Of a stretch of DNA of 64,000 nucleotides, positions 10,365-64,000 are shown piece after piece. Under the pieces are notes generated by a model that saw only the letters and a program-made list of their open reading frames with translations, was not told the origin of the DNA and did not search any database. Each line of letters opens with the position of its first letter. The first letter of the stretch is position 1. The position numbers and the translations under genes were made by a program. Origin of the DNA: Nanobdellota archaeon (GTDB lineage Archaea; Nanobdellota; Nanobdellia; Pacearchaeales; GW2011-AR1); assembly GCA_030647965.1 (NCBI GenBank), contig JAUSIT010000016.1, forward strand, positions 8,429 through 72,428, in the 5' to 3' direction.

Positions 10365-10365
10365 A

Positions 10366-47197: not shown

Positions 47198-47249
47198 TTT
47201 TTTATAGCAAACAAACAAAACAAACAACAATCAAAAAACGAGGTTTGTC

Positions 47250-47636: not shown

Positions 47637-47706
47637 CTGGAAGAATAATTTAGCAGTGAGCAAAGAGCAAATAATCAAAAACAACTTTTTTCTCTGGAGG
47701 TATATC

Positions 47707-48192: not shown

Positions 48193-48197
48193 AAATA

Positions 48198-48371: not shown

Positions 48372-48390
48372 CTATTCAACATCTTCGCCA

Positions 48391-48426
48391 AGAGAGGCAT
48401 TATATTTCTATTATATAGTGCCTCTT
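48391..48426. repeat. 37-nt palindromic hairpin repeat, copy 1
   Basis: agagaggcattatatttctattatatagtgcctctt. Confidence 0.7.
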
Positions 48427-48481
48427 AAATTAAAAAAGCATTGAGCAATTAAACAAACAACTTTTTTCCAGGAGGCATGTC

Positions 48482-48844
48482 ATGTTAATCTTTGGAATTC
48501 TTTTGGCACTCGTTATCCTCGGGGTAGTAGTGTATCGTTTTGCACCAAAGGATGTTGGGAGCACTATCATGGTCCTCTCTTTGGGCATGATTCTTGTAAC
48601 TATGTTAACTATCCCACTCGCCAGAAATCAGTATATCCAAGAAATTTATGGTTTCAGGGATTTTAGCGAATTCTGCAAAGAAACTGGGGCCATAGGGTTT
48701 AAGCAGTCAGAAAATTATGACGAGTTTATGCAACAAGTCAAAGAAAAAAATATCTGGCTTGTCAGAACCCAACATTTTAATTCTGGCATCTGGTTTGATC
48801 TCTGGATTCCGGATGAAGTTGATTTGCTTGAACAGATTAAGTAA
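48482..48844 (+). CDS. membrane protein
   Basis: SD ccaggaggcatgtcatg. Confidence 0.45.
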   Translation: MLIFGILLALVILGVVVYRFAPKDVGSTIMVLSLGMILVTMLTIPLARNQYIQEIYGFRDFSEFCKETGAIGFKQSENYDEFMQQVKEKNIWLVRTQHFNSGIWFDLWIPDEVDLLEQIK

Positions 48845-49131
48845 CTGAAAACAATTTCACAAACAAAAACTTTTCACAATCTAAAACAAAAAAAGGAGTA
48901 GGCCATGAAAGCAATGAAATATGTTTTTATTATGGCCAGCGTTATTATCATTATTGCCGGAGCAATAGTGATGGTTATTCATCATCTCAAAAGCATAGCA
49001 GACAATCTTAACTGGATGCTCTTTGGCGATGGTGCTGGCATGAATGTTGTTCGCAAATAAATCGTTTACAAAAAACAATAATATACTAAACAAAAAAAAC
49101 TTTTCACAAAAACAATTTTCGGAGGTGTGTC

Positions 49132-49566
49132 ATGTCAAGAATGTTGGTTCTTATTATGGTTGCGCTTTTTGCGACCTGTGTTTTTAACGGCTGTGGAGAA
49201 TCTAAATATATTTACGGAGTTGTTTTAAATGAATATGGGACCATTGTCAAAAGGCAAAACTTTATTGAACGTTCTGAAGGAGCATTATTTGGAAACGATT
49301 CAATAAAGCTAAATGATCCTACCTATGTAATTCAATTTCAGGTGGTTTCTGTAAGAAGTTCTAAAAAAATATATGATTCCGGCCCTTACCTTGGAAAAAT
49401 TTATACTTTTCAAATTATGGGAGGGAGATATAATAATTTAGAAGCATTAAATATTGCAATACACAAAGGAACAAAAATCAGAATTCCCCAGAGCGAATTT
49501 AATTTTTATTTAAATGGTAATGTAGGCAAAATATTTGATTCAAATGTTAGTGTATTAGATGAATAA
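49132..49566 (+). CDS. lipoprotein
   Basis: 'LFATCVFNGCGES' lipobox-like; SD ggaggtg. Confidence 0.5.
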   Translation: MSRMLVLIMVALFATCVFNGCGESKYIYGVVLNEYGTIVKRQNFIERSEGALFGNDSIKLNDPTYVIQFQVVSVRSSKKIYDSGPYLGKIYTFQIMGGRYNNLEALNIAIHKGTKIRIPQSEFNFYLNGNVGKIFDSNVSVLDE

Positions 49567-49835
49567 TCCAATCTGAAAAAGAAAGGAGGTGAGAATAATG
49601 TTGCTAGGAACAATACTACAAATCGGAGGAGCAATAATTATGATTGTTAGTGTAATTGGTTTGAGCATTACACTATACAATAACCATAAATCAAACAAGC
49701 ATCCTGAAAGGAGGTGATCTAATCTATCTGTTTTTATTTTACAAATCTTAAAACGAAAGGAGATAAACAACAAACAAATGATTTACCTGATTCATCACTA
49801 TTTTCAAACTTCAATCATCAACAAGGAGAAATTCT

Positions 49836-50075
49836 GTGAAAGCTCTTATGATTGCTTTGCCTATCTGGGCGTGGATTATTGTTACGCTCATCGCTGTTTT
49901 TATTCTCTGGAACATTCTCGCCATCATCGGTGCGATCATCGGCCTGTTGTTCTGGGTCATCGGTTCGCTCATCCATTCCATCATCACTCTCGGCATTATC
50001 GGCCTGATTATTTGGGGCGGATACAAAGTCTGGAACTGGGTGAAAAACACCATCGGCAAGGAAACCATTTCGTAA
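49836..50075 (+). CDS. small membrane protein (GTG start)
   Basis: SD caaggagaaattctGTG; three hydrophobic helices. Confidence 0.45.
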   Translation: MKALMIALPIWAWIIVTLIAVFILWNILAIIGAIIGLLFWVIGSLIHSIITLGIIGLIIWGGYKVWNWVKNTIGKETIS

Positions 50076-50353
50076 TCTTCACACCGCCGCGAGAGAGCCT
50101 GATGATTAATTCTGAGCATTGGGCTCTCTTGCTTTTTTCAAAAAAGAAAAAGAAACGAGCAGTACATTTACAAAAAACAAAAGAGGCAATAAAATGTTAA
50201 GCTTGAAGAAAAAGATTGAAGCCAGAATCAGACTCCGTGTTTTTCTGGTAGCAAAATATGGAAAGCGCTGGTACAAACGCCCGCAATTTTTAAGATTAAT
50301 TAATAAGCGGACCAAGTGAAAACAATTTTACAATTTGAAGGGAGGTGAAAAAA

Positions 50354-50731
50354 ATGTCAAAGATGAATATCAGTACATCTCTACTGCTAATCCTTGCCAC
50401 AATGACTTTAATTCTTCTTGGTGCCGGATTTATTGAGCTGATAAAAATCGCAATATTATTAACTATAACCATTGCTTTTGTTCATGGCATAGTTAATTTT
50501 AAAATAAATTTCGGCAAAAAAGCATTGATCACATCGATTAGCAATAAAGTTACCATCTGTTTAAGTTTGGCAATACTATTGTTTTTCTTTGGAGGGCCAT
50601 TAGTGTTGCCTGTTAAATTATTTATATTAGTCTTTTTTGGAGAATTTGCAATATATGGAATCTGGATTTATGTAAAAAATAAATTCTTCAACAAGACTAT
50701 CCCGCCGACAACTCCTCCTGCATCAGCGTAA
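50354..50731 (+). CDS. membrane protein
   Basis: SD gggaggtgaaaaaaATG (track start 50345 is GTG within SD). Confidence 0.45.
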   Translation: MSKMNISTSLLLILATMTLILLGAGFIELIKIAILLTITIAFVHGIVNFKINFGKKALITSISNKVTICLSLAILLFFFGGPLVLPVKLFILVFFGEFAIYGIWIYVKNKFFNKTIPPTTPPASA

Positions 50732-50742
50732 CATCTTCGTCA

Positions 50743-50779
50743 AGAGAGGCATTATAGTTCTATTATATAGTGCCTCTCT
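50743..50779. repeat. 37-nt palindromic hairpin repeat, copy 2
   Basis: agagaggcattatagttctattatatagtgcctctct. Confidence 0.7.
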
Positions 50780-50956
50780 AAATTGAAAACAATTTAACTT
50801 TTGAAGGGAGGTGAACAATATGCGACGATGTTTCTACTCCAACCATAGAATGAGATAACCTACCTCAGGCGGTCCCCCGACATAATCCAAAGAGATTACA
50901 AGTCGGGACGCGTTACAAAAAAAGTTTTACAAAAATCGTTCTTGTTATGATTTTCA

Positions 50957-51000
50957 AAAGAGGGTTTGATATCTGAAATATTGAGCCCTCTTTAATTTTT
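50957..51000 (+). terminator. Rho-independent terminator (8-bp GC stem + T-run)
   Basis: aaagaggg...ccctcttt aattttt. Confidence 0.5.
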
Positions 51001-51027
51001 GAAAATAATTATTTGTTTTAATATAGA
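50999..51027 (+). promoter_or_regulatory. sigma70-like promoter TTGAAA-N17-TATAGA
   Basis: ttgaaaataattatttgttttaatataga; near-identical copy at 55023. Confidence 0.55.
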
Positions 51028-51084
51028 AAAAAATTAGCAGTGAGCAAACAATTTTTATAGGAGAAAAAAGAAAAGAGGTGAAAA

Positions 51085-51354
51085 ATGAAAACAATTTTTG
51101 TAGTACTTCTCCTCATTGCAGCAATTATTTTTCTAATAGTTGATTGCAATGAAAAAAGAAAAATCAGAAAGATTCAAAGGAGAAAGATCATGACCCAAAC
51201 CAAAGACGACCTCAGCATGACATCGTTTGGCATTCCTTACAGTCAACTCGATGATGAAAGGAGAAAACACATCGATCTGCTTTTTGCTCGACAGATTTAT
51301 CAAGAAGTCAAACCCCCACGAATTAACCTTAAGAAAGAAAGAGGGATGCAATGA
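51085..51354 (+). CDS. small membrane-anchored protein
   Basis: SD agaggtgaaaaATG. Confidence 0.45.
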   Translation: MKTIFVVLLLIAAIIFLIVDCNEKRKIRKIQRRKIMTQTKDDLSMTSFGIPYSQLDDERRKHIDLLFARQIYQEVKPPRINLKKERGMQ

Positions 51355-52079
51355 TAACTCGCAAAGTACAGATTATCGTCGCGCTGTTTTCTATTCTCTT
51401 TGTTTTGACTGCCCTTTCCATTGTTGGCCCTTGCAGCAAGGCTAACGGTGAAAACGCCAAGACTGAAACTCCGATTACTGCAAGCTGGGACAACACCTAT
51501 TCCAGCAAGTATGTATTCTGGGGAATCCAATTCAGCAACAAGGATGTCTATCAATCGCTCATCACTATTAACAAAGGGCATTCCACACTCTTTGTTTTCA
51601 GCAACAGGGATTTCGAAACCTCGACGTGGAATGAACACGATGTGTTTTTCGATTACACAACTCCTATCAACAAAATGGTAAATATGTCAGCGGGCTACAA
51701 CTATTACAACTGCCGGCTCGGCGACTGGGAAAGCTATAACGAAATTTACATTGGCGCCAGTTTCAATACTTTCCTCTCGCCGGCAATCAGCTATCACAAT
51801 ATTTTCGGCTTTGAAAACGGAAATTACTTCGAGGCCAGTGTATCCAAAAGCTTCCAGATCAACGACAAGATTACTCTTTTATCTTCTGGAAAACTTGGAT
51901 ACAACGACAAAGCATTCAGAACAGCCACGGATTTTAGCCATACTGAATGGGGAATATCTGCACCGATTACATATCTTCCCCATTTCATAATCTCACCGTT
52001 TGCAAAGTATTCATTTGCCCTGGCTGATGATCTCAAGAATGTTTTCTACGGCGGTGCGACTGCAAGTTACAAGTTCTGA
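51351..52079 (+). CDS. secreted beta-barrel-like protein ending in aromatic residue (OMP-like)
   Basis: Signal anchor, alternating amphipathic strands, C-terminal ...ASYKF. Confidence 0.4.
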   Translation: MITRKVQIIVALFSILFVLTALSIVGPCSKANGENAKTETPITASWDNTYSSKYVFWGIQFSNKDVYQSLITINKGHSTLFVFSNRDFETSTWNEHDVFFDYTTPINKMVNMSAGYNYYNCRLGDWESYNEIYIGASFNTFLSPAISYHNIFGFENGNYFEASVSKSFQINDKITLLSSGKLGYNDKAFRTATDFSHTEWGISAPITYLPHFIISPFAKYSFALADDLKNVFYGGATASYKF

Positions 52080-52096
52080 TTCTTTTACGGCGGACA

Positions 52097-52133
52097 AGAG
52101 AGGCATTATAGTTCTATTATATAGTGCCTCTCT
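52097..52133. repeat. 37-nt palindromic hairpin repeat, copy 3
   Basis: agagaggcattatagttctattatatagtgcctctct. Confidence 0.7.
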
Positions 52134-52198
52134 GAATTTTAGCAAACAGCAAAGAGCAAACAACATCACAAACAAACTTTTTCACGAGGAGAATCATC

Positions 52199-52684
52199 AT
52201 GTTTGGAAAATTCACATCTTTTGTGATCGCACTTATAATCACTTCCATTGTGGCGATCGGGATTTATCACAACAAAATCAATTATAATACTATTTTCAAC
52301 GAAGAAGAAATTTCGTCAAGCATTGAAGAGCCCACAAACGAATTAATTACTTTTAATATTCCTGTAATATTTGCTGATGGGGCTCAAGGACAAGTCAAAG
52401 GAATATTTTATTATCATTATTCAAATTTATTTGATTCATCAGAAATTAAAGTAATTAAAGATCGTAAAATGTTCCTCCTGAATGAAATCCACAAGGCATT
52501 ATGGATTATTGCAGTAAATTTTACTGCACCAATAACTCTTGATGAAAAAAAGAAATATGTTTCAGAGGTAATTTCTACAATCAACGAAAATCCAAGATTC
52601 AAAGATTCTAATCTCAAAATCTGGTTTATTGATTTTGGTCAAATTAAGCCCGGAGTTTTTGATCAAGGTCTTTTAATTCAGTAA
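52199..52684 (+). CDS. membrane-anchored hypothetical protein
   Basis: SD cacgaggagaatcatcATG. Confidence 0.45.
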   Translation: MFGKFTSFVIALIITSIVAIGIYHNKINYNTIFNEEEISSSIEEPTNELITFNIPVIFADGAQGQVKGIFYYHYSNLFDSSEIKVIKDRKMFLLNEIHKALWIIAVNFTAPITLDEKKKYVSEVISTINENPRFKDSNLKIWFIDFGQIKPGVFDQGLLIQ

Positions 52685-52768
52685 CCTTCCAGCGTTCAGA
52701 ATTGAGCAAAAACTTTTCTAAGAAAGGGGAACAATATGAAAATCCAAAAAAGAAGGGAGGTGAAAAAC

Positions 52769-53251
52769 ATGAAAAGATTTTTCTCATTCGCAACAATCTT
52801 GATAACATTGTTGCTTAGTTTGATTACGGGCTGTAGTGAAAATAATGAATCAAATTATAATAACTTCAGCTCAGATTCAGACTCAACAAAAACAGGGACC
52901 TCAATAGATTCGCTCAAAACCCCTGTTTCAATACTGACTGGAAAGATTGTCCAAATTCAAACAGGCAGTTTAATTGTCTATACAGGAAATGGATATGTCT
53001 TCCATGAATTCAAATATGTAATGGTCGAAGGAACTGATGGGGGATTTTATATTCTTATTTATCCCTATGCTGTGAAAGCAATCTGGGAAAAAGAAGCAAC
53101 TATAAAATTCAGGCCGTTACATAACGGGCAAATTGATTCAAACACCTTTATCAATCTTTTTCTATTCTCCCGCAATGATGCTTCATTCATTAATCATCTG
53201 CCAATCGAAGCAGATGGCATCATTATCAACAACGGAATTCAATACAAGTAA
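52769..53251 (+). CDS. lipoprotein
   Basis: 'LLSLITGCSENNE'; preceded by conserved 35-nt leader at 52733. Confidence 0.5.
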   Translation: MKRFFSFATILITLLLSLITGCSENNESNYNNFSSDSDSTKTGTSIDSLKTPVSILTGKIVQIQTGSLIVYTGNGYVFHEFKYVMVEGTDGGFYILIYPYAVKAIWEKEATIKFRPLHNGQIDSNTFINLFLFSRNDASFINHLPIEADGIIINNGIQYK

Positions 53252-53347
53252 CAGATTTTACAATCAACAGATTTTACAATCAACAGATTTTAAATTGGAG
53301 AAGGAGGAATTTATGAAAATCCAAAAACGAAGGGAGGTGAACAAATT

Positions 53348-53584
53348 ATGTGGATACTCCTCGAATGGTGTTTGGTAATCACAGTCGCAGTGTTTATCAT
53401 AAGCCAGATAATCCTCCCGCCCTTTATTAACAAGCGTTTTTTCTGGATTCTTCGGAAAAAAGAGAAAAAGCTCGATGCTGTTGGAAACGAGCTGATTGAT
53501 GCGCAGGTTGATTTAGAAGTGGCTGAAACTCGTGCGGCAGTCAAGAAAGTTCTGGATAAAACCAGTAAATTGAATCACAAGTAA
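53348..53584 (+). CDS. small membrane protein
   Basis: preceded by conserved leader at 53313. Confidence 0.45.
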   Translation: MWILLEWCLVITVAVFIISQIILPPFINKRFFWILRKKEKKLDAVGNELIDAQVDLEVAETRAAVKKVLDKTSKLNHK

Positions 53585-53643
53585 CAAAAATCTATTCATT
53601 CTTTTTCATTCACTTTTTTTCATATCTATCAAGGAGCTTTTCA

Positions 53644-54966
53644 ATGAATACTCCCACTCAGTATCGCGGGCTCAACCCCAAGGCTATTCTCCTCTCGATT
53701 CTCGGAGTAATCGCCCTCATCATCATGTTTTTCGCGTCCAAGACCATTTTCGAGAATGTCGACGCAGGGGAAATCGTCATCATCCAGGATCCGATTGATG
53801 GAGACCTTCATTTCTATACTGCCCAGGGTATGAAATTCCAGAAATTCGGCAAGGTCACCAAGTATCAGAAATCTTTCCAGTACTGGTTCAGTGTTGCGAC
53901 CGACCAGGGGAAAAAGCTTGACCAGTCCATCAAAATCCGCTACAACGACGGTGGTCATGCCCAAATCTCTGGAAGTGTGAGATGCGATCTTCCAATGGAT
54001 AATGAACATCTCACGTTGATTCATACCAAACTCGGCTCCCAAGTGGCACTTGAACACGAACTCGTTCGGCCGGTTTATGAAAAAGCCATTTATATGACTG
54101 GTCCGCTCATGTCTTCAAAAGAAAGCTATGCTGAAAAACGAAACATGATGATTTCGTACATCGAGGACCAGGCCAACTTAGGAGTTTATAAAACCGTCTC
54201 CAAAGAAGTAAAAGGAATTGACCCCATCACTGACGTCGAAAAAACTGTCACCCAGGTTGAGCTTGTGAAAGCTGACAACGCTCCTGGTAAAATCGCCCGT
54301 GAAGAAATTTCTCCTTTACAAACTTTTGGAGTCAAGGCCTATAACCTCAGTATAAATTCCATTACCTACGACGGCACTGTTGAAGCCCAGATCTCTTCCC
54401 AACAGAAAGCTATCATGGAAGTTCAAACGGCAATGGCCGAGGCCAAGAAAGCTGAACAGCGGGCGATCACTGTGACCAAAGAAGGTGAAGCCAATGCTGC
54501 CAAGTCCAAGTGGGAGCAGGAAGTCATCAAGGCCAAGATGGTTACTGAAGCTCAGCAGAAACTTGAAGTTGCTGAACTTGACCGCAAAGCGGCCGAACAA
54601 ACCAAACAACAGCAAATTCTTCTGGGCCAGGGTGAAGCTGAACGGAAGCGGCTGGTCATGTCTGCTGATGGTGCCCTCGAGAAAAAGCTCGAGACATATG
54701 CAGATGTCATGAAAACATTTGCTACTGAATTCGCTAAGCAAAAATGGGTGCCTGAAACTCTTCTTATGACTGGCGGAGAATCTGGTGGCAAGCAGTACAG
54801 CCCTGTAATGGATATGATGAATATGTTCATGGTCAAGACTGCTCGTGACCTCAATCTCGATATGACCATTCCTGCCGGACGAACAGTCAGAAGCCCTAGT
54901 TCAACCGACACATCTGAAGCGAAATCCGTGCCTGCATCTGGGTCAAGACCTTCCTCGAAGAAGTAA
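53644..54966 (+). CDS. SPFH/band-7 (prohibitin/flotillin-like) domain protein
   Basis: N-terminal TM, SPFH core, C-terminal Ala/Glu/Lys coiled coil; SD aaggagc. Confidence 0.55.
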   Translation: MNTPTQYRGLNPKAILLSILGVIALIIMFFASKTIFENVDAGEIVIIQDPIDGDLHFYTAQGMKFQKFGKVTKYQKSFQYWFSVATDQGKKLDQSIKIRYNDGGHAQISGSVRCDLPMDNEHLTLIHTKLGSQVALEHELVRPVYEKAIYMTGPLMSSKESYAEKRNMMISYIEDQANLGVYKTVSKEVKGIDPITDVEKTVTQVELVKADNAPGKIAREEISPLQTFGVKAYNLSINSITYDGTVEAQISSQQKAIMEVQTAMAEAKKAEQRAITVTKEGEANAAKSKWEQEVIKAKMVTEAQQKLEVAELDRKAAEQTKQQQILLGQGEAERKRLVMSADGALEKKLETYADVMKTFATEFAKQKWVPETLLMTGGESGGKQYSPVMDMMNMFMVKTARDLNLDMTIPAGRTVRSPSSTDTSEAKSVPASGSRPSSKK

Positions 54967-54982
54967 CACTCTGCATCGTCAA

Positions 54983-55019
54983 AGAGAGGCATTATAGTTC
55001 TATTATATAGTGCCTCTCT
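54983..55019. repeat. 37-nt palindromic hairpin repeat, copy 4
   Basis: agagaggcattatagttctattatatagtgcctctct. Confidence 0.7.
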
Positions 55020-55022
55020 GAT

Positions 55023-55051
55023 TTGAAAATAATTATTTGTTTTAATATAAA
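55023..55051 (+). promoter_or_regulatory. sigma70-like promoter TTGAAA-N17-TATAAA
   Basis: ttgaaaataattatttgttttaatataaa. Confidence 0.55.
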
Positions 55052-55106
55052 TAGAATTTAGCAATGAGCAAAAACTTTTAAAAACAATCAAAAAACGAGG
55101 CGTGTC

Positions 55107-55634
55107 ATGAAAAAGATTATTATTACTCAAGTGATTACGACAATCATTTTTCTGTCAGTATTTTTTATTGCTTCATATCTGACAAATAGTGCTATGTCGA
55201 TTTTTGCTGCACTAGCTATTGCAGGAGTAGCAATCAGTTTTGCAAGTGTTGCAATATCTCCATCTAGTAAAATAGAAGATGCTGCACTTCTTAGCGTCAT
55301 AGTAGGACTTACTGCTATGAGCGCTGCTCTTGCTTGCAGATATCCTGTTCATGATGATACATTTATCCTAACTGTTTTAATTCTTATTCTTTTAATAACA
55401 ATTTTAACAGCTTTTGGAATAAAAGCTATTGCTGAAAAACTCAATATTAATAATGAAAGGATATTATTTACTAGTTATTTAATGCAGTTTTCTGTAATAT
55501 TTTTTCCCATGCTAAACGCTGAAGTTGATTTAATATTGAAAACAATAATAATATTAATCACTCTTGCAGGTATTGGATGGATTCTGTTCAAATATCTTAA
55601 TGGTGATTTTAGCAAAAAACATGAAGGGAGGTGA
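55107..55634 (+). CDS. polytopic membrane protein
   Basis: 5-6 TM helices. Confidence 0.45.
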   Translation: MKKIIITQVITTIIFLSVFFIASYLTNSAMSIFAALAIAGVAISFASVAISPSSKIEDAALLSVIVGLTAMSAALACRYPVHDDTFILTVLILILLITILTAFGIKAIAEKLNINNERILFTSYLMQFSVIFFPMLNAEVDLILKTIIILITLAGIGWILFKYLNGDFSKKHEGR

Positions 55635-55772
55635 AAAATATGCTAGGTATAATGGTTCCAATATGCATTCTTCTTTGGATTCTCGCAGCGTTGCTGATAC
55701 TACTATGACGCTAACCCCTCAAGAAAGGAGAAAATAGTTATGAAAATCCGAAAAAGGGGGGAGGTGAATAAT

Positions 55773-55964
55773 ATGAATCTGGACGTAAACTCATGTCTTA
55801 TCGGAGTAATAATAACAGTAGCAGTTTACACTATATTGATTATCTTTTTTGCCAAGGATAATATCAACAATAACATTATCAAATTCAAAACCAAATGTCC
55901 GAGTTGTGGTCATGAAATCACCGAAGACAGAAAGGTAGAAGTGGGATTAAAAATTTCTGAATAA
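55773..55964 (+). CDS. small membrane-anchored zinc-ribbon protein
   Basis: 'CPSCGHEI'; preceded by conserved leader at 55739. Confidence 0.4.
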   Translation: MNLDVNSCLIGVIITVAVYTILIIFFAKDNINNNIIKFKTKCPSCGHEITEDRKVEVGLKISE

Positions 55965-56046
55965 CAATCAGAAAAGTAAGAAATTATTTTCACGAAAATA
56001 AAACATCAACATTTTTTCTTTAAGGAGGTGAATTTATTTGAGTGAC

Positions 56047-56316: not shown

Positions 56317-56347
56317 CACAACAATCTAAAACGTGAAAGGAAAGAAC

Positions 56348-57037
56348 ATGGAATCAGAACCGAAACCTGAAAAAAGAGGATTTGGTCAAAGACTCATGAG
56401 GATAATTTTTGAAGATGAAGAAAAACCTTCCACTCAACAATCTTCCCAGGTCAACAAAAATCCTGATTCACCAACTCCGGCGCCTGTAGGAAATTTTGTT
56501 TCTCCTACGCCGACATCAACACCTGCACCTTTTATTTCTGGAAGTGCTGTGGACAAACAGCTTCTTGATTTTCTGAGAAGTCAAGTGAACAAAGCAGCAC
56601 CAGGAGTATTTTCACAATTCCAAACTCTGTTAGACAATCTTTCAAGTGTACTAACAGATCGTGCTCTTCTTTTCAGGGCTGCTTTCAAAGCTGCTGAAAC
56701 AGGCCACCAGATGAAAAAAGAAACTCTCGTGGCTGCTTTTCAGGCCAGACTTCAAATCCTCGAAAGTGAAAAACAAAAATTCGAGGAAGGAGTTGAAGCC
56801 CGGAGGAAAGAAGTAGTGGAAGGTAAGGAAAAACAAGTCAATCAGGTCAGCATTCAGATTGAAGAAATGAGCAATCAACTTTTAAAAGCTCAGGAATTGC
56901 TCAAGACCCTTACCAACGAAATCACTGAGCAAAATCAAAAAATCGAGACAAAGCAGAGAGAATTTCAGCTGGCTCATGCAGCTCTCGAAGCTGAACTCAT
57001 CAATGATCTCAACAACATCACAACTCACCTCAAGTAA
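56348..57037 (+). CDS. coiled-coil protein with Pro/Thr-rich linker
   Basis: track start 56333 is GTG; ATG at 56348. Confidence 0.4.
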   Translation: MESEPKPEKRGFGQRLMRIIFEDEEKPSTQQSSQVNKNPDSPTPAPVGNFVSPTPTSTPAPFISGSAVDKQLLDFLRSQVNKAAPGVFSQFQTLLDNLSSVLTDRALLFRAAFKAAETGHQMKKETLVAAFQARLQILESEKQKFEEGVEARRKEVVEGKEKQVNQVSIQIEEMSNQLLKAQELLKTLTNEITEQNQKIETKQREFQLAHAALEAELINDLNNITTHLK

Positions 57038-57069
57038 TAAGACAGCTTGCTGTCTAGAAAGGTTACAAA

Positions 57070-58146
57070 ATGAACTCTTCAAGTTTCACACCTAAATCGT
57101 TCTGGGAAAAACCCGAAGGAACATGGGGTATGGTTATTGGAGTTCTCGGAGCTCTTGGGCTCGGCTGGGTTCTTTACAAAGCCCTTCCGTTCATCATCGT
57201 GCTTCTCCAGAACGTTATCACTACAATACTCCTCGGCGTGGCTCTCTTCGCGATTCTCTGGGTGCTTTTTGACAAAAGATTCCAGATTCTGGTTTCTTCA
57301 ATGTACAAAAGCGCAGTGAGATTTATCGCCGGAATCTTTATCACCATCGACCCCATAGGTATTTTGAAAAACTATGTGGAGGGTCTCCAAGATAATCTGA
57401 ACAAGATGAGCACCCAGATCAGCAATCTTCGGGGGCAAATGCGCAATCTCGAAATTCTCATAAAACAAAACGAGAAAGAGCGCATCGATGCCCTTACCAT
57501 GGTCAAGAGAGCTCAAGAAGCTGGCAAAAGGGGAGTTGTTGTTCTCAAGGCCCGCAAAGCCGGCAGACTTGAAACTTCAAATGTCACGCTTCAGGACCTG
57601 TTCAATAAGATGGAATTATTGTTCAGAGTTCTGGAAAAAATGCGTGAGGCATCTGGACTTCTGATCGAAGATCTGGTTGATGAAATCGATGTCAAGTCTC
57701 GTGAGCGCAAAATGGTTTATGCTGGATGGTCTGCAATTCGTTCAGCTAAATCAATAATCAATGGTGAAAATGACAAGCGGGCAATGTTCGAGCAGACCAT
57801 GGATTATCTTGCTGCAGACTATGGTGAGAAAGTTGGCGAGATTGAAGATTTTGTCTCAATGTCTGCCGGCTTCCTCGATACCATTGACCTGCAGAACGGC
57901 GTCTATGAAGAAAACGCCATGAAGATGCTCGAAGAATGGGAAAGAAAGCCTGAGTCCATTCTTCTTGGCAATGACAACAAGCAGATTATCATCGCCGCAG
58001 CCAATGACCCGAATGATGTTTTCAATTTCGCGTTCGATATTAATGGAAAACCTGCTGACGCGAAGTTTGTGGAAATACCTCGGAAGACTGCAAAAGAGGG
58101 AGCTTCTGATGAAGGCTACCGCAAATTCCTCGACGATGATAAGTAA
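57070..58146 (+). CDS. membrane-anchored coiled-coil protein (PspA/TelA-like?)
   Basis: two N-terminal TM helices then long charged helical region. Confidence 0.35.
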   Translation: MNSSSFTPKSFWEKPEGTWGMVIGVLGALGLGWVLYKALPFIIVLLQNVITTILLGVALFAILWVLFDKRFQILVSSMYKSAVRFIAGIFITIDPIGILKNYVEGLQDNLNKMSTQISNLRGQMRNLEILIKQNEKERIDALTMVKRAQEAGKRGVVVLKARKAGRLETSNVTLQDLFNKMELLFRVLEKMREASGLLIEDLVDEIDVKSRERKMVYAGWSAIRSAKSIINGENDKRAMFEQTMDYLAADYGEKVGEIEDFVSMSAGFLDTIDLQNGVYEENAMKMLEEWERKPESILLGNDNKQIIIAAANDPNDVFNFAFDINGKPADAKFVEIPRKTAKEGASDEGYRKFLDDDK

Positions 58147-58228
58147 TCTTCAAGAATTACACCTCTGATTCATCTGCATTACTCACAGATTTATTTTCAA
58201 ACACTCAACAAAACGCAGGAGTAGTACC

Positions 58229-59812
58229 ATGAAGATGAACCCGTTTCCCAAGTTTGTGCTGATTGCAGTTATTGTCAGCGCGATTATTTTTGGCATTATG
58301 CAGCTCATCAAAGTTCCGGCAGTCAAGAACCTGGTCGCTCCCGAGGGCAAACAGGCGACAACCAGTGTGAGCAAGGACGTCAAGAAGGCCATGAAGGACG
58401 GCGCTGAAATCGTCAACGTCGGTGTTGTAACCTGGGGTGGTTATGCTGGTGGCCAGTATTTCAACAATGGCTTCAACCCCTCGAAAGATTCCCGCTACTT
58501 TAGCGAGTATGGAATCTTTGTCAAGTTCCAGGTTTTGGATGATTTCAATGCATCCAGAGCTGCATGGAAAAAAGGCGAAGTCGACCTTATGTGGGTTACT
58601 GCCGACGCCTATCCTACTGAAACTGCTGGTCTTATCGACGCTGGTTACAACCCCAGATTCATTTTTCAGGCTGACTGGTCAAGAAAAGGTGATGCAATCG
58701 TCGCGATCAACGGCATCAATTCTGTCGCAGACCTCAGTGGGAAAAAAATCGCTGTTGCACCTGGAACCCCGTCGCACAGTCTGCTTCTGAAAACTCTCGA
58801 AGCCAATAACATGAGCTATGAAAATATTACTCCTGTTATCGTTCCCTCTGCAATCGACGCTGCTGCAATGTTCAAAGCAGGCAAAGTTGATGCTGCAGTA
58901 GTATGGAGCCCTGATGATGCAGACTGTGTGCGGACTGTTCGTGGTTCGAAAGTTTTGATTTCAACAGGAACAGCTCCGTTCATCATCGCCGACGGATTTT
59001 TCGTAAATGCTCAGACTCTCGAGAAGAAACACGATGCTATTGTCTCCTTTGTCGAGGGTTTTCTACGCGGCGCTGCTGAAATTAACACAGATCCGGCTGC
59101 AAAGCAGAAAGCCATTCAGATTCTCATGACTGGTCTGAATCTTGATCAGCAGCTTGCTGAAAATGCGATTAACAACGTCCGCCTGACTACCTTTGGTGAC
59201 AATCTGAATTTCTTTGGATTGAATCAGAGCTATACTGGTGTAAAAGGTGAAGACCTTTACAATCAGATGGGCAAAATGTACAGCTCAATCAAAGTCGGTG
59301 ACTCTTTCCTGGCGCCTTCAAATCTGCCTGCCTGGAGAAATGTTACTGATTTGAGTATTATTCGTGAAATCCAGTCTCGCGGAAAACTGACTTCTGCCGG
59401 CGATGCTGCTGAAGGTGAAATCAAATTTACCAAAGCCAGCCAGAAGGATATAACTGCTACTGCATTATCCAGGAAATCCCTGACAGTTACTTTTGCGACT
59501 GGCTCGGCGGCGTTGGATCAAAATGCCAAACTCATTATTGAAATGGGTTTTGTCGATATTGCCAAACAGTTTGCCAGTGCACGTATTCGCATCATCGGCC
59601 ATACTGATAATGTCGGAAGCAGGGAAGGAAATATTTCCCTTTCCAAGAAACGCGCGAAATCAGTCGCGGACTTTCTCGTCAGTGAATATGGCTTTGATTC
59701 CAATCGCTTTATCATCGACGGCAAAGGTCCTGATGAACCGGCAAGCACCAATGACACTGAAGAAGGACGCGCTGCAAACCGGAGAACTGAATTCCAGCTT
59801 CTGAACAACTGA
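58229..59812 (+). CDS. NitT/TauT(SsuA/NMT1)-family substrate-binding protein fused to OmpA-like C-terminal domain
   Basis: SBP core; C-terminal 'IIGHTDNVGSREGNISLSKKRAKSVADFL...NRRTEF' OmpA/MotB peptidoglycan-binding motif. Confidence 0.55.
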   Translation: MKMNPFPKFVLIAVIVSAIIFGIMQLIKVPAVKNLVAPEGKQATTSVSKDVKKAMKDGAEIVNVGVVTWGGYAGGQYFNNGFNPSKDSRYFSEYGIFVKFQVLDDFNASRAAWKKGEVDLMWVTADAYPTETAGLIDAGYNPRFIFQADWSRKGDAIVAINGINSVADLSGKKIAVAPGTPSHSLLLKTLEANNMSYENITPVIVPSAIDAAAMFKAGKVDAAVVWSPDDADCVRTVRGSKVLISTGTAPFIIADGFFVNAQTLEKKHDAIVSFVEGFLRGAAEINTDPAAKQKAIQILMTGLNLDQQLAENAINNVRLTTFGDNLNFFGLNQSYTGVKGEDLYNQMGKMYSSIKVGDSFLAPSNLPAWRNVTDLSIIREIQSRGKLTSAGDAAEGEIKFTKASQKDITATALSRKSLTVTFATGSAALDQNAKLIIEMGFVDIAKQFASARIRIIGHTDNVGSREGNISLSKKRAKSVADFLVSEYGFDSNRFIIDGKGPDEPASTNDTEEGRAANRRTEFQLLNN

Positions 59813-59903
59813 TTCAACCTCACATTTAAACCAGACTGAATAAAAGAGTGGGATAAATTTTGATATTTGTCTCACTCTTTAAATTTCAGAAAGCGAGTTT
59901 TTT

Positions 59904-60722
59904 ATGAATGAGTTTCGCTTTAAAGATCTGTTTGAATTGCGAGGAGAACTTTCATCAAAGGTAAGCTTGATTTGTGAAATCATTGGAGTTGGATTTATTC
60001 TTGCTGCCTGGCAGATTATTACCCAATACAAAATTCTGCCAACAGGAATTTTTCCGTCGCCCTTAAAAATCCTGCTTGCTTTTCCTGAACTGCATTTTCA
60101 CGAGGGTCTGGTTCGCAATATGTTTTATTCATTAAAACTAAACCTCCTCGGCACTTTTGAAGCAGTTCTACTTGCAATTCCGCTCGGGTTTATCATCGGG
60201 CTTTTTCCTGGATTCAGGGCAATATCCTACAGATATATTAAGGCAGTAAGATATCTTGCCCTAACACTCCTCGTCGGGGTTTTCATTGCAATGTTCGGTA
60301 TTTTTGATATGATGAAAATTCAGTTTCTTGCATTTGCGATTTTCATCTATCTCTTGCCGACAGTGATTCAAAGAATTGATGAAACCTCGCAAGTTTACCT
60401 CGATACAATATATACTCTTGGAGCAAGAAAGTGGAAAACAATTCGTTATGTTTTCATACCTGATGTTCTTTCAAGAGTATATCCTGATATTGTAAACCTT
60501 GCTGCATTATCCTGGACTTACATTACCATCGCCGAGGTTGTCAATACTTCTTCTGGGGGCATTGGAGCACTTTCATTTCTTTCTTCAAGGCAATCAAGAA
60601 TTGACAAAACCTTTGCAATAATAATAGTCATTCTTTTAGTTGGCTTTATTATTGACAAGGTTCTCATTGCCCTTGGAAAAGCTCTCTTTCCGTATATGTA
60701 TGTAACAAAAGGAAGGAGATAA
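59904..60722 (+). CDS. ABC transporter permease (NitT/TauT family)
   Basis: 6 TM; 'LGARKWKTIRYVFIPDVL'. Confidence 0.6.
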   Translation: MNEFRFKDLFELRGELSSKVSLICEIIGVGFILAAWQIITQYKILPTGIFPSPLKILLAFPELHFHEGLVRNMFYSLKLNLLGTFEAVLLAIPLGFIIGLFPGFRAISYRYIKAVRYLALTLLVGVFIAMFGIFDMMKIQFLAFAIFIYLLPTVIQRIDETSQVYLDTIYTLGARKWKTIRYVFIPDVLSRVYPDIVNLAALSWTYITIAEVVNTSSGGIGALSFLSSRQSRIDKTFAIIIVILLVGFIIDKVLIALGKALFPYMYVTKGRR

Positions 60723-60723
60723 T

Positions 60724-61584
60724 ATGGACGTTCCTATCACTCCTGTTTCCCCTCTGCCTGCAAACGGGCTTAATCCTGTATATTTTCCTGATAGTCCTCT
60801 TCCTGATATTATTGAACTGCGTAATATTTCGCAGTCCTACGATGGAGGGAAAAATTGGATTATCAAGGATTTAAATTTCAGGATTGAAGACCAACCTGCA
60901 ATGGGCGAATTTATTGTTATCCTCGGAAGATCTGGATGTGGGAAATCAACACTGCTTCGCTATCTTTGTGGCCTTCAAAAACCAACGCAAGGTGAAGTGC
61001 TGATAAATGGAAAACCAAGAACAGAAGAAACAGTCATCGCCCAGGTTTTCCAGCAGTACTCTTCTTTTCCATGGTATAGTGTTCTTGAAAATGTCATGCT
61101 TCCTTTAATTATTCAAGGAGTTGACAGAAGACAAGCAAAAGAAAAAGCCATGGAGATGATTCAACGCGTCGGTCTTGAAGGTCATGAAAAAAAGTGGGCG
61201 CTCTATCCACTTCTTTCTGGAGGCCAACTGCAACGAGTTGCAATCGCTCGAAGCCTTATTTCAAATCCCCACATCCTTCTTATGGATGAACCATTCGGCG
61301 GTTTGGATACTTTCACAAGGCATCAAATGCAACTCATGCTTGCCTCAATCTGGGAAGTGCTTCAGTCAACTGTGATATTTGTAACTCATAATATTGACGA
61401 AGCAGTTTTCCTTGCAGATAAAATTTATATTATGTCTGCAAATCCAGGGCAGATTGTCAAGAAGTATCATGTTGATTTGCCCACGCATCGCGACAAAAGC
61501 ACAAAGCGCGACCCTCGATTCACCCAGTTAGTTTGGGAAATCGAAGATGGAATCGATGAAGTCGCGAAGGCGTGCGGGAAGTAA
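60724..61584 (+). CDS. ABC transporter ATP-binding protein
   Basis: Walker A 'GRSGCGKST', signature '[15 protein letters not shown]', Walker B 'ILLMDEPF'. Confidence 0.75.
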
Positions 61585-61832
61585 TTCCAAAAAAAATCCA
61601 GCCCTGCTGATGAGAACAACCAATAAGCAGCGTGAAACTCTGAACAGTATTCAGGTACGGCGTGAAACCAGAACATCGGGAAAGAAAACCATAAGCAGAA
61701 ATGCTAAGTGGAAATTGTTTCCTCGCCTGTGCAGTTTTATTTTTGCACATAAAAATGCTGACTAAGGGGCAAGTTGGATTTTTCAAAAAAGTAAACAATC
61801 TAACAAAAACATTTTTCAGAAAGAAGGACAGC

Positions 61833-62087
61833 ATGGAATTCATCGGTGCGTATTGGTGGTTATGGCTGATATTCTCTGTGATCTGCACAGGATATGCCAT
61901 ATTCAATCAGGTCAAGCGGATGAAAAACTTTCACCAAGTAATGCTCTCAAGAATGAACCCGGTCGCGGCATCCAATTCGTTCTTTTCTGGATTGATTCCT
62001 TTGATCATCTCGGGATTGCTGGCAACAGGGTTTAGTATACTCCTCGGGATTTCCATCGTCGTCAACATCATCCAGATGATCAAGTAA
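61833..62087 (+). CDS. small membrane protein
   Basis: ATG within ORF-track entry 61701..62087. Confidence 0.4.
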   Translation: MEFIGAYWWLWLIFSVICTGYAIFNQVKRMKNFHQVMLSRMNPVAASNSFFSGLIPLIISGLLATGFSILLGISIVVNIIQMIK

Positions 62088-62217
62088 TCTTCCGGCGTCG
62101 TCGAAGAGAGCCCAATAATAAATAAAAAAGCATTGAGCCCTCTTGCTTTTTTCAAAAGAAGCGAGCAGTTTTATGAATTTTCATTTTAACATTTCAAAAT
62201 TTTTCAAGGAGTATATC

Positions 62218-62784
62218 ATGAAATCGTTTTTGATGATTCTCGTGGCTATTTTTCTCGCCAGCTTCATGTTTCTGAATGTTCCTGAGGTTTACTGCCAGAG
62301 CAATTCTTCGAGTGAGCAGATTCTCGTCGATACCAAGGACCTTCCGGCTGACGTCGTCGCCCAGATTAAAGCGAAACAGAAAGTCGAGAGCGTCGGTAAG
62401 TGGGTTGGAATGGGCAAGGAAATCGGCGAAGCAATGAATGGTGCCATGACTGCCCTGGAAGAACATGTTGATAAAATCGGAAATACTCGCGTCGGGAAAT
62501 TCACCATGTTTCTTGTTGCTTACAAAGTCATCGGCACTGATATGATTCAGTTGCTTATCGGTCTTCCCTTACTCATCATCGGCACCATGATATTTATTAT
62601 AACTTGGTTCCGAAGCTGTGTTAAACGAAAAGTCAAAAAAATAACATACGCAGCGGTCGGTGATAAAAAGGTAATCTCTGAAACAAGCGAGACCCTTGAA
62701 AACCCCGATTATGACTACTGCTGGGCATCAGTAGTTGTATATGCAATCTTTCTTGGCATCTGCACTGCAATCATTTTCACATAA
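62218..62784 (+). CDS. secreted/membrane protein
   Basis: SD caaggagtatatcATG; signal + C-terminal TM. Confidence 0.45.
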   Translation: MKSFLMILVAIFLASFMFLNVPEVYCQSNSSSEQILVDTKDLPADVVAQIKAKQKVESVGKWVGMGKEIGEAMNGAMTALEEHVDKIGNTRVGKFTMFLVAYKVIGTDMIQLLIGLPLLIIGTMIFIITWFRSCVKRKVKKITYAAVGDKKVISETSETLENPDYDYCWASVVVYAIFLGICTAIIFT

Positions 62785-62853
62785 TCACATTCAATCTTCT
62801 AAACAAATTCAGGAGTTTAACAATCAAACGAATTTAAAGAGGAGGTGAAAAAC

Positions 62854-63048
62854 ATGACATGCTTAATATCTGCCTTTATCTGCCTGCTGGCGGCGATTGT
62901 TCTTCTGGCTCTCCTCTGGCCGATTTTCTGGGCAATCTTCAAAATCACTCTGGGGGTCTTTATCATTGCGATTATTTGGAAATGGTTGATGAAAAGGACC
63001 AAGGATAAACCTACTACTCCGACCCCGCCGACAAATCCCGCCATGTAA
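62854..63048 (+). CDS. small membrane protein with Pro/Thr-rich tail
   Basis: SD gaggaggtgaaaaacATG. Confidence 0.4.
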   Translation: MTCLISAFICLLAAIVLLALLWPIFWAIFKITLGVFIIAIIWKWLMKRTKDKPTTPTPPTNPAM

Positions 63049-63059
63049 CATCTGGCTCC

Positions 63060-63093
63060 GAGGGCATTATGATTTTAATTATATAGTGCCCTT
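63060..63093. repeat. palindromic hairpin repeat, variant copy 5
   Basis: gagggcattatgattttaattatatagtgccctt. Confidence 0.55.
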
Positions 63094-63137
63094 TTATTTT
63101 TAACAATTTAATAAAAAAGAAAAGAGGTGAAAAAACC

Positions 63138-63257
63138 ATGAAGAAAAAGAATGGAGTGTATCGGGTTTGTCCTAACTGCAAAACCGAAAACCCCAAGCAT
63201 TCCACTAAATGCCCGAGTTGCAAGCGCGATTTACGCAAGGGTAAAAGTGGTCAATAA
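63138..63257 (+). CDS. 39-aa zinc-ribbon peptide
   Basis: 'CPNCKTENPKHSTKCPSCK'; SD agaggtgaaaaaaccATG. Confidence 0.4.
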   Translation: MKKKNGVYRVCPNCKTENPKHSTKCPSCKRDLRKGKSGQ

Positions 63258-63286
63258 TAAGTAAGTTGTAAATCCTTTATTTAAAA

Positions 63287-63323
63287 AGAGAGGCACTATA
63301 ATTCTATTATATAGTGCCTCTCT
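63287..63323. repeat. 37-nt palindromic hairpin repeat, copy 6 (perfect arms)
   Basis: agagaggcactataattctattatatagtgcctctct. Confidence 0.7.
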
Positions 63324-63327
63324 TAAA

Positions 63328-63356
63328 TTGAAAATAATTCTCAATTTTTATATATA
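63328..63356 (+). promoter_or_regulatory. sigma70-like promoter TTGAAA-N17-TATATA
   Basis: ttgaaaataattctcaatttttatatata. Confidence 0.5.
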
Positions 63357-63409
63357 GAAAGAAACGAGCAGTTAAAAAACAAAACAATTTTTTTTCTTGG
63401 GGGTGTATT

Positions 63410-63829
63410 ATGAAAAAGTTTTGGTGGTGGGTGATTGGCTTGATTGCTTTGCCGTTAGTGGTTCTGGGTCTGAGTACATTTTTCGGGGCTGACAACACTA
63501 ACGAACTGGTCGTGCTTTCCACCCTTATTACAATCGGTGGGCTGATTCTGGTGGCAGCAAGTCAACAGTCCACAAAAACATTAAAGCCCCAGGTGCCTCC
63601 AGCTATAAGACATATCTATGTCTTTTCAGCCTCGGGAATTCTTCTGCTTCACTCTATTGTTGTTGGGAAAATTGGGAATAGTCCAACATGCAGCTTCCCT
63701 ATAGAATCTATTTCATGGGAAGATGATAAAGGAAATTCTCACCGACAATATCTTTCCGGTGCAGTCAGTGTTCATATTTCCAATGTTCCTCTTCCGGATT
63801 CTCTGACTCCGCCGGCACCGCAGAAGTAA
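63410..63829 (+). CDS. membrane protein
   Basis: SD ttgggggtgtattATG; three TM helices. Confidence 0.45.
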   Translation: MKKFWWWVIGLIALPLVVLGLSTFFGADNTNELVVLSTLITIGGLILVAASQQSTKTLKPQVPPAIRHIYVFSASGILLLHSIVVGKIGNSPTCSFPIESISWEDDKGNSHRQYLSGAVSVHISNVPLPDSLTPPAPQK

Positions 63830-63863
63830 TCTCCTGGCAGTAATCAATTGTTTTTCTCTGAAG

Positions 63864-63893
63864 GGGTGTCATAGTTCTATTCTATGATACCCT
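63864..63893. repeat. palindromic hairpin, variant copy 7
   Basis: gggtgtcatag-ttctatt-ctatgataccc (same loop, different stem). Confidence 0.45.
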
Positions 63894-64000
63894 TGGGATT
63901 TTAATAAAAATTTTTTTGCATTTTTTTTTTTGGCTTTCTATTATATACTTTAATATAGTATATTAAGATATATATGTTAGGATAGATAAATAACTAAGGG

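Follow-up and report, generated by a model that had tools for sequence, protein, structure and literature searches.

A 37-nt hairpin repeated past stop codons in a bacterial-looking gene island of a Nanoarchaeota genome: a candidate element of transcript punctuation

The window analysed here is a 64-kb stretch of DNA from a Nanobdellota archaeon (contig JAUSIT010000016.1), and our subject is a 37-nt palindromic repeat, the 37-mer, that recurs between the small genes of an island on its right side. We think, with a probability of about 0.5, that this repeat serves past stop codons as a transcript 3'-end, attenuator or stabiliser hairpin, a reading that is based on the sequence. Its bias towards the sense strand, the compensatory changes in its stem and its constant location just past stop codons speak for a structure acting in the transcript. 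We regard it as a new sequence family in an already known class, that of post-gene hairpins and terminator/promoter cassettes.

A search of the window with the consensus AGAGAGGCAYTATARTTCTATTATATAGTGCCTCTCT, allowing up to 3 mismatches and taking dinucleotide-preserving shuffles as the null, gave exactly five matches, all on the + strand (48391, 50743, 52097, 54983 and 63287, named c48391 and so on below), and none in the shuffles. Three of these core copies, c50743, c52097 and c54983, are 100% identical to one another. The first-pass annotation of this DNA had listed seven copies, and this count stands, the five core 37-mers and two variants (v63060 and v63864) being recovered by the search and by a covariance model built from the alignment of the seven. 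On the + strand the model gives the core copies 65–73 bits, as against 17–32 bits on the − strand, and the variants 57–59 bits, for which reason the latter are counted as true family members. The model found no further copy, either elsewhere in the 64-kb window or among nine related loci (L002, L003, L008 to L010, L013 and L014 among them). With its filters switched off, the sole weak relative was the hairpin at 50957 (21 bits, E ~1e-3), and three other hairpins of the island reached chance-level scores only.

All seven copies were expected to form a stable hairpin and they do, with stems of 14–15 bp, loops of 7–9 nt and folding energies between −14.3 and −23.2 kcal/mol. The five core copies lie at −18.9 to −23.2 kcal/mol (z-scores of −5.9 to −7.7), v63864 at −20.9 kcal/mol (z −4.7) and v63060 at −14.3 kcal/mol (z −2.4). 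In the alignment of the seven, 94.9% of the cells pair, versus 31–67% when the 3' partners are slid by 1–3 columns. Changes on both sides are seen in 4 of the 14 stem pairs, a number that was reached by 20 of 500 shuffles. At two neighbouring pairs of v63060, A-U has become G-C and G-C has become A-U in a compensatory manner; in v63864 most of the stem is rewritten, yet 13 pairs (2 of them G·U) and the loop TTCTATT are kept. This loop and the upper stem CATTATA/TATAGTG are kept in six copies out of seven, and the covariation sits in the lower stem. Coming from seven sequences, the covariation is suggestive, not conclusive, of a real pairing signal.

The claim that each copy sits just past a stop codon proved correct, as 7/7 begin 9–32 nt after one, and the distance from the hairpin end to the next start codon is 40–87 nt for the six copies that are followed by a gene within the window. 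Consecutive copies are separated by 228 to 8304 nt and by 1–12 genes; with such gene-filled spacings, a CRISPR array, which has repeats of 23–50 nt and spacers of similar length, was discarded. Identity among copies is 89–100% within the 37-mer and 37–73% over the 30 nt on each side, random 30-mers of the island giving 49 ± 7%. This collapse at the borders indicates that the hairpin is a self-contained unit of about 40 nt, as opposed to the centre of some larger duplicated segment. A conserved left flank, catcttcgNcaagagagg, had been attributed to several copies; only those at 48391 and 50743 share it well. The presence of three identical copies amid random flanks suggests that the unit was copied as such, or that it has been kept uniform by conversion or selection. 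An unpaired CGTC with A residues after it stands ahead of c50743, c54983 and the hairpin at 62104, and CGCC stands ahead of c48391. We also observed that the repeat fragments assemblies, since two independent k=31 contigs of run SRR13727527, L001 (window 52106-55011) and L011 (from 54992), end within identical copies.

The folding of every intergenic stretch of the island disclosed five more sense-strand hairpins, at 46456-46491, 50089-50139, 50957-50993, 59843-59880 and 62104-62152 (Table 1), which have a style in common with the 37-mer, namely a purine-rich 5' arm AAGAGRG and a pyrimidine-rich 3' arm CYCTCTT. In 10 of the 12 hairpins of the island the + strand RNA is more stable than the − strand RNA by 5–11 kcal/mol, because G·U pairs become A·C on the other strand; the exceptions are one hairpin that is equal on both strands and the degenerate one at 62104. 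The hairpin at 59843 is conserved in L013 with a compensatory change from A-U to G-C, and L014 also has a hairpin after its binding-protein gene. The malE-malF and hisJ-hisQ operons have a stabiliser or attenuator hairpin in this very place, between binding-protein and permease genes, and the likeness to such stabilisers of ATP-binding cassette (ABC) operons extends to the retention of the hairpin with compensation in a relative. At the site that c54983 occupies here, past the SPFH gene, L008, L009 and L002 carry unrelated hairpins with U-tracts.

Table 1. Coordinates of the island, its hairpins and representative downstream modules within the window.
Feature	Coordinates	Strand	Context
Island holding every copy	46000..63900	+	17.9 kb, 35–45% GC versus 27% in the flanks, 35 same-strand genes
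Hairpin AAGGGCC...GGCCCTT	46456..46491	+	After gene 46178-46435; promoter-like module directly at 46495
Core hairpin c48391	48391..48427	+	3 mismatches to consensus; stem 14-15 bp; 19 nt past stop of gene 48198-48371; no promoter module; leader motif AGCATTGAGCAA at 48437
Second-type hairpin with U-tract, GAGAGAGCC...GGCTCTCTTGCTTTTTT	50089..50139	+	After gene 49836-50075; GAAACGAGCAGT at 50152
Core hairpin c50743	50743..50779	+	11 nt past stop of gene 50354-50731; CGTCAA precedes; truncated promoter module TTGAAAACAATT at 50783, then 12-codon mini-ORF (open reading frame)
Terminator-like hairpin	50957..50993	+	16 pairs, 3 G·U, then AATTTTT; promoter-like module at 50999
Core hairpin c52097	52097..52133	+	17 nt past stop of 242-aa (amino acid) Gcw_chp-like gene 51351-52079; no promoter module; AGCAAAN heptads directly at 52141
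Core hairpin c54983	54983..55019	+	16 nt past stop of SPFH gene 53644-54966; full promoter-like module 55023-55051; leader motif at 55060
Module P (TTGAAA-17 nt-TATAAA)	55023..55051	+	Other copies from 46495, 50999, 63328; truncated at 50783
Leader module U (TTAGCAATGAGCAAAAACTTTT)	55058..55079	+	Related: 47652, 48437, 51036, 52141/52148
Intra-operon hairpin	59843..59880	+	Between binding-protein gene 58229-59812 and permease gene 59904-60722
Degenerate second-type hairpin with U-tract, AAGAGAGCCC...GAGCCCTCTTGCTTTTTT	62104..62152	+	After gene 61833-62087; CGTCGA precedes; GAAGCGAGCAGT at 62158 follows
Variant v63060	63060..63094	+	Arms GAGGGCATTATG...ATAGTGCCCTT; two compensatory pair changes versus core
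Core hairpin c63287	63287..63323	+	C-G in place of U·G, giving 15 perfect pairs; 29 nt past stop of gene 63138-63257; promoter-like module 63328-63356; GAAACGAGCAGT at 63361
Variant v63864	63862..63896	+	Stem differs, fully compensated; final element ahead of AT-rich right flank

With intrinsic terminators the 37-mer has in common a stable sense-strand stem-loop past the stop codon, and the relatives carry ordinary terminators at the same positions. The core copies differ from them in lacking the U-rich tract and in the fivefold re-use of one sequence, where terminators usually vary between genes. A canonical U-tract (TTTTATTTTT) is found in v63060 alone among the seven family members; the hairpins at 50089, 50957 and 62104 likewise have a U-tract. 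Since the core copies have no U-tract and only two of them have a complete promoter downstream, they are not canonical terminators.

In the mechanism that we propose, the 37-mer would be present as a sense-strand RNA hairpin in the 3' untranslated or intercistronic stretch directly past the stop codon and, along with the five hairpins of like style, it would split the island, whose genes all point one way, into roughly twelve units. Copies that have no U-tract would be read through, acting as attenuators that set the ratio of upstream to downstream message and blocking 3'-to-5' exonucleases, while those with a U-tract (v63060, 50089, 50957 and 62104) may bring about outright termination. We infer partial attenuation and 3'-end protection, and not full termination, from the core copies having no U-tract and from three of them having no complete promoter.

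Several facts weigh against this proposal. Efficient termination at the three core copies that have no complete promoter would leave at least nine genes unexpressed. All five core copies, with 2–4 U in the next 8 nt in place of a U-tract, were missed by a terminator scan. The covariation statistics are weak at n = 7, the observed values being reached in 6–20 of 500 shuffles. Termination in archaea relies, as far as is known, on T-tracts, not on hairpins, and bacterial-type signals may fail altogether in archaeal surroundings. Lastly, a conserved loop and three identical copies exceed what a generic terminator needs, which points to specific recognition or to recent copying.

Were recognition the reason, the hairpin would be an RNA site for a protein or nuclease (an RNase III-type enzyme, an antiterminator or a translational regulator), at which a polycistronic message is cut or controlled at defined points. 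This would suit a fixed loop and upper stem above a covarying lower stem and a structure that exists on the sense strand only, as well as the several copies without a downstream promoter, whose read-through transcripts would be open to processing. Nevertheless, we give it rather little credit, as the island yielded no candidate for such a protein or nuclease (its small zinc-ribbon proteins are without assigned role), the repeat matches no Rfam family, and the stem of 14 bp is shorter than the ~20 bp that is typical of RNase III substrates. Rfam found only a tRNA in the window, and at E ≤ 1 it gave two chance-level matches in the island.

Beyond the hairpin (module H), the alignment of the stretches downstream of the hairpins defines two further modules. 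Module P, ATTTGAAAATAATTATTTGTTTTAATATAGA, is readable as TTGAAA-17 nt-TATAxA, that is, as a sigma-70-like promoter. It is complete after four hairpins (46456, 50957, c54983 and c63287), and all five TTGAAAAYAATT sites of the 64-kb window directly follow hairpins of the island. Module U, TTAGCARTGAGCAAA...AACTTTTTT, with 12 motif matches versus 4.7 expected, is found with and without a hairpin. A second type of leader, GAARCGAGCAGT, occurs at 50152, 62158 and 63361, and also in L013, where it precedes an unrelated gene; the same leader next to different small genes indicates that the non-coding syntax travels independently of the genes. The three modules would be separable non-coding units, U being an A/C-rich leader that opens with a GAGCA motif, variously combined ahead of unrelated genes.

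These modules bear on the first-pass annotation, which saw at each copy a cassette of terminator, promoter and leader. The modular syntax of hairpin, promoter-like stretch, leader and Shine-Dalgarno (SD) site is real, and its modules turn up in varying combinations beside unrelated genes. A terminator plus a promoter at each copy was an overstatement, as the core copies have no U-tract and a complete TTGAAAATAATT-N-TATAxA follows only those at 54983 and 63287, the promoter being truncated at 50743 and absent at 48391 and 52097. In a similar way, the leader motif AGCA..GAGCAA was found again at 47652, 48437, 51036, 52141/52148 and 55060; the claimed site at 62130 belongs to the hairpin at 62104, as its 3' arm, and the one at 63338 has a different motif, GAAACGAGCAGT at 63361.

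In two places the leader motif takes the form of three tandem heptads, AGCAGTG-AGCAAAG-AGCAAAT at 47652-47672 and AGCAAAC-AGCAAAG-AGCAAAC at 52141-52161, both 36–56 nt upstream of start codons, and these may serve as a start-site region or as a binding site. Another repeated block, ATGAAAATCCRAAAAAGRRGGGAGGTGAA, occurs three times (52736-52768, 53313-53347 and 55740-55772), each time preceded by an SD of its own, and the SD of the gene that follows lies within it. Two of the copies share the reading frame of that gene and extend its N-terminus by a stretch of MKIQKRREV type; the third is out of frame and would form an upstream ORF of 21 codons that overlaps the start. Past c50743, the segment 50820-50956 holds a 12-codon mini-ORF (MRRCFYSNHRMR) with a perfect SD, followed by about 100 nt of non-coding DNA with a strong GC-rich hairpin (GGTCCCCCGAC...GTCGGGAC) and by the terminator at 50957. 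It has no Rfam match, and may encode a leader peptide with attenuator, or else a small RNA. A gap of 248 nt past the ABC ATPase gene (61585-61832), with no ORF called, has a predicted fold of −54.8 kcal/mol.

Among the closest parallels to this organisation are the promoter early stem-loop (PeSL) cassettes of T4-type phages, which consist of a stem-loop, a sigma-70-like promoter, an SD and a start codon and lie in plastic, orphan-rich regions (PMC2839356, PMC4122927). As in PeSLs, a stem-loop directly precedes putative sigma-70-like −35/−10 elements and then an SD and start at c54983, c63287, 46456 and 50957, though not at c48391 and c52097 and only in truncated form at c50743; cassettes recur among small, unrelated orphan genes of the same direction in a plastic region, and complete and degraded ("half") versions stand side by side. 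The same cassette is also found beside different genes in relatives, as is the GAARCGAGCAGT leader in L013, and the stems of phage nt-1 (A3-4G3...C3T3-4) resemble the AAGAG...CTCTT base of the hairpins described here. In contrast with PeSLs, the island is not a T4-like phage and has archaeal chromosome as its flanks, and conservation is far stronger in the hairpin than in the promoter, the hairpin occurring also without any promoter. Moreover, here there are three identical copies with sharp borders, and the core hairpins have no U-tracts. A further trait of PeSLs is recombination between copies, with deletions, insertions or mini-circles as products, and the mosaic of flanks around the hairpins is the only, indirect hint of it here.

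The rest of the genome and the metagenome had been proposed as places in which to look for the 37-mer, and it turned out to be restricted to the island, with no copy in the other 46 kb of the window or in the public collections scanned. The exact pattern of its 31-nt core was absent from viral (IMG/VR) and genome collections, and that of its 23-nt core from the viral collection and from 185,579 species-representative genomes. A metagenome scan returned four loci, all of them due to chance or unrelated (one within a coding region, three with a different palindrome). A megablast of the island against phages gave nothing, and neither did a blastn of one whole cassette against phages and plasmids.

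Such searches matter for the possibility that the 37-mer is a miniature mobile palindrome of the bacterial donor, of the type of the repetitive extragenic palindromes (REPs), that was carried in with the island and whose effects on transcripts are incidental. We consider this unlikely, although it overlaps with transcript punctuation, from which it differs as regards the cause of the identity among copies (a transposase related to the REP-associated tyrosine transposases, RAYTs, or other transposition) and the island-specific role. REPs are extragenic palindromes of 20–40 nt between genes of the same direction and near stop codons, with unrelated flanks and usually confined to one lineage, and they are thought to act in termination and mRNA stabilisation. 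In size, location, flanks and restriction to one lineage the 37-nt unit, 9–32 nt past stop codons, is like them, and its three identical copies and the fall of identity to random at its borders also speak for mobility. The CGTC before c50743, c54983 and 62104 and the CGCC before c48391 recall the superfamily of CGTC-tagged REPs, which have stems of 8–9 bp, loops of 4–5 nt and a CCA tail and have been reported from several phyla, Bacteroidetes included (PMC3733652). Unlike those, the 37-mer has a stem of 14 bp, a loop of 7–9 nt and no CCA tail. Head-to-head dimers predominate in REP families (PMC3733652), whereas here there are only seven copies, all singletons in one orientation and all in one 18-kb island. 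No Pfam match to a RAYT (Y1_Tnp) was found among the window ORFs scanned. The absence of copies from the 46 kb of flanking archaeal DNA and from L013, and of the 23-nt core from every one of the species-representative genomes, also disagrees with a REP.

Array-like arrangements of hairpins and genes are known from integrons as well, and both integrons and integrase-less clusters of attC sites are reported from Nanoarchaeota metagenome-assembled genomes (PMC9668308). The first-pass annotation had mentioned a cassette array, in which the hairpins would be attC-like sites of single-strand DNA recombination marking the ends of captured cassettes. The hairpins do come after stop codons among small genes that lie on one strand and for the most part have no known function, and G·T pairs would likewise favour one DNA strand. 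We rejected this explanation as highly improbable, because the defining features of attC fail: the R''/R' boxes (RYYYAAC / GTTRRRY) are absent around the stems, as read by eye, the stems are perfect, with no bulge or extrahelical bases, and 1–12 genes separate the copies. In addition, no intI or other tyrosine recombinase was seen among the ORFs scanned in 65 kb, no direct repeats were found at the island ends, and the cassettes bring their own promoter-like and SD signals, in difference to attC cassettes.

The island itself stands apart from its surroundings. The content of G+C is 25–34% up to 46 kb, 34–45% in 46–64 kb and ~25% past 63.9 kb, the flanks having 27%. Its + strand genes, from 46178 to 63829, number 35, somewhat more than the earlier estimate of about 30 tiny genes, and GGAGG-type SD sites precede most of them. 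At least one membrane helix is predicted in 28 of the 35 proteins, and some appear to carry lipoprotein-like signal sequences in our own reading of the N-termini. Gene duplication was considered as a source of the repeats, and no paralogy was detected among the 35 proteins. Ten small proteins encoded beside hairpin copies are singletons among 15 billion sequences. Genes of bacterial type include those for an OmpA-fused binding protein and its ABC transporter, a Gcw_chp-like protein and an SPFH protein, with strong SD sites.

An operon at 56.3–61.6 kb encodes a coiled-coil protein, a 358-aa membrane protein, the OmpA-fused binding protein, a permease and an ATPase. The same gene order is found in L014, with a binding protein that is 56% identical; L014 is taken to be a Bacteroidota contig because it carries genes with the type IX secretion signature Por_Secre_tail. 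L013 has 76.5% nucleotide identity to the operon over 5.3 kb, and different small genes upstream. For the binding protein, named homologues come from Bacteroidota, Chitinivibrionales, Caldithrix and bins of the candidate phyla radiation, and the SPFH family is represented in phages as well as in candidate-phyla-radiation and DPANN bins. A representative library contains 405 relatives of the 242-aa protein. The bacterial Pfam family Gcw_chp, which we take to belong to an outer-membrane beta-barrel clan, is matched by 13 of 36 aligned members (the 242-aa query and 35 of its best matches). An AlphaFold model of this protein made without an alignment was unusable (predicted local distance difference test score, pLDDT, of 34), and a profile search of the PDB found nothing.

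The flanks are archaeal in character. The low-GC flank encodes a prolyl-tRNA synthetase with a ProRS-C_1 domain, which we take to denote the archaeal/eukaryotic type of this enzyme, together with GatB, GatD, a GatE-like protein, TrmB and TGT. Boxes of TTTAAATA type lie ~25–33 nt ahead of the flank genes, most of which have no SD; this is the archaeal leaderless pattern. Rfam places a tRNA (54 bits) at 21762-21868 (+) whose anticodon loop contains 38 inserted nt. ARAGORN in bacterial mode sees none in the window; the Rfam match is probably an intron-bearing archaeal tRNA. To the right of the island, the − strand carries an NYN-domain gene; there is also a gene that, going by its N-terminus, looks as if it codes for an aspartyl-tRNA synthetase and that has a TATA-like box ahead of it. 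NCBI records of the exact island proteins (Q7S33_02360-02475, on a 95,896-bp contig) are labelled 'MAG: ... [Nanoarchaeota archaeon]'.

Independent contigs assembled from k-mers of run SRR13727527 cross the left junction (44939-50441) and the right one (54992-65229) with 100% identity, the latter reaching 1.2 kb beyond the window end (L011 9010-10238 = window 64001-65229). Contigs that span both junctions indicate that the island is physically inserted in a DPANN chromosome, with the caveat that both assemblies at the junctions derive from the same reads. In all, the island looks like a cross-domain block of bacterial type in a Nanoarchaeota genome, and this setting replaces that of a phage, one of those suggested by the first-pass annotation: an island of foreign GC and bacterial-type genes has archaeal (DPANN) chromosome on both sides. 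Matches to PHROG families in the island are of accessory type only, with no phage structural or replication genes found, and no att-like direct or inverted repeats of at least 13 nt were detected at the island ends. An origin from a huge phage, prompted by the aminoacyl-tRNA synthetase genes, the low GC and a best SPFH match in a 462-kb 'uncultured phage', was ruled out by the GatD/GatE-type genes, TrmB, the insert-bearing tRNA, the leaderless TTTAAATA genes and the Nanoarchaeota labels of the proteins.

At the left junction (45837-46177) we observed 341 nt of A/C-rich DNA with short direct repeats (ATTGAAATAGCTT twice and TTTTAACTNGNTTTAAC twice), ending in the ribosome-binding stretch ATCTCTGAAAGGRG, the same as that ahead of the second gene of the island. 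The adjacent low-GC segment 41983-45836, considered as the core of a mobile element and dismissed, encodes an FHA domain, weak matches to RIO/APH-type kinases and a HerA-like ATPase. A second and unrelated family of palindromes is present in the low-GC DNA, with AAAARNTTTYGCTCTT, a loop of ~20 nt and AAGAGCAAAAYNTTTT, stems of 16–19 bp and A/T runs on the flanks. Its members, at 2553-2606, 16189-16244 and L011 9060-9113 (window ~64051-64104), each lie in the gap after a gene and may be host elements of terminator-like or small-RNA type. Farther to the left, 7619-11771 contains NAD-related genes, for a phosphoribosyltransferase with a QRPTase_N domain, a nicotinamidase-like protein of isochorismatase fold, NAD synthase, a NUDIX protein, a deoxyribosyltransferase-like protein and an ADP-ribosylglycohydrolase. 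A separate NUDIX regulator of NrtR type is encoded at 18155-18817, and has a homologue (51% identity) beside the SPFH gene in L008.

The archaeal surroundings raise the question of whether the AT-rich 3' arm of the hairpin (ATTATATAG) is an archaeal TATA box, such that the unit would end one transcript and start the next and make bacterial-derived genes expressible in the archaeon. The host genes do have TTTAAATA-type boxes at ~25–33 nt before start codons, and in the copies without module P the leader GAGCA/AGCA comes 24 nt past TATAG (c48391 to 48442; c52097 to 52148), a spacing that fits a TATA box centred near −27, as is the rule in archaea. There is also a copy of TTCTATTATATA, which comprises the hairpin loop and 3' arm, that is free of a hairpin: this sixth exact occurrence, at 63936-63947, lies 40 nt past the last variant, and may represent a half copy in decay or else a TATA-like site in its own right. 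We see only a slender chance for this idea. The tops of AT-rich palindromic stems always hold TATA-like strings, and the likeness may be incidental; a purine-rich TFB-recognition element (BRE) is not present ahead. In v63864 the TATA string is lost and the hairpin is kept, which indicates that the selected feature is the fold, and the 40–87 nt between hairpin and start, with strong SD sites, are unlike the leaderless genes of the host.

A more ambitious proposal would go beyond transcript punctuation and take the H, P and U modules as linkers of a gene-shuffling platform, by which a DPANN archaeon would insert, delete and swap bacterial-derived membrane-protein genes through recombination at the identical 37-mers and at the promoter and leader modules that are shared, the 3' arm of the hairpin perhaps doubling as archaeal TATA box; this would be a cross-domain capture system distinct from integrons. 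We hold the whole proposal to be speculative and improbable. If it were true, each captured gene would arrive with its transcript end and its transcript start.

In our opinion, the hairpins are useful mainly as markers of the borders of transcription units, and they are also a cause of assembly breaks. More interesting than the hairpin is its setting, with 18 kb of bacterial-style genes and expression signals inside a DPANN chromosome and a non-coding syntax that is re-used ahead of unrelated orphan membrane proteins. If the repeats recombine, the modular shuffling of PeSL type would extend beyond T4-like phages. Should the island be expressed, it would show in what way an episymbiotic archaeon can acquire bacterial genes for surface and transport functions and regulate them.

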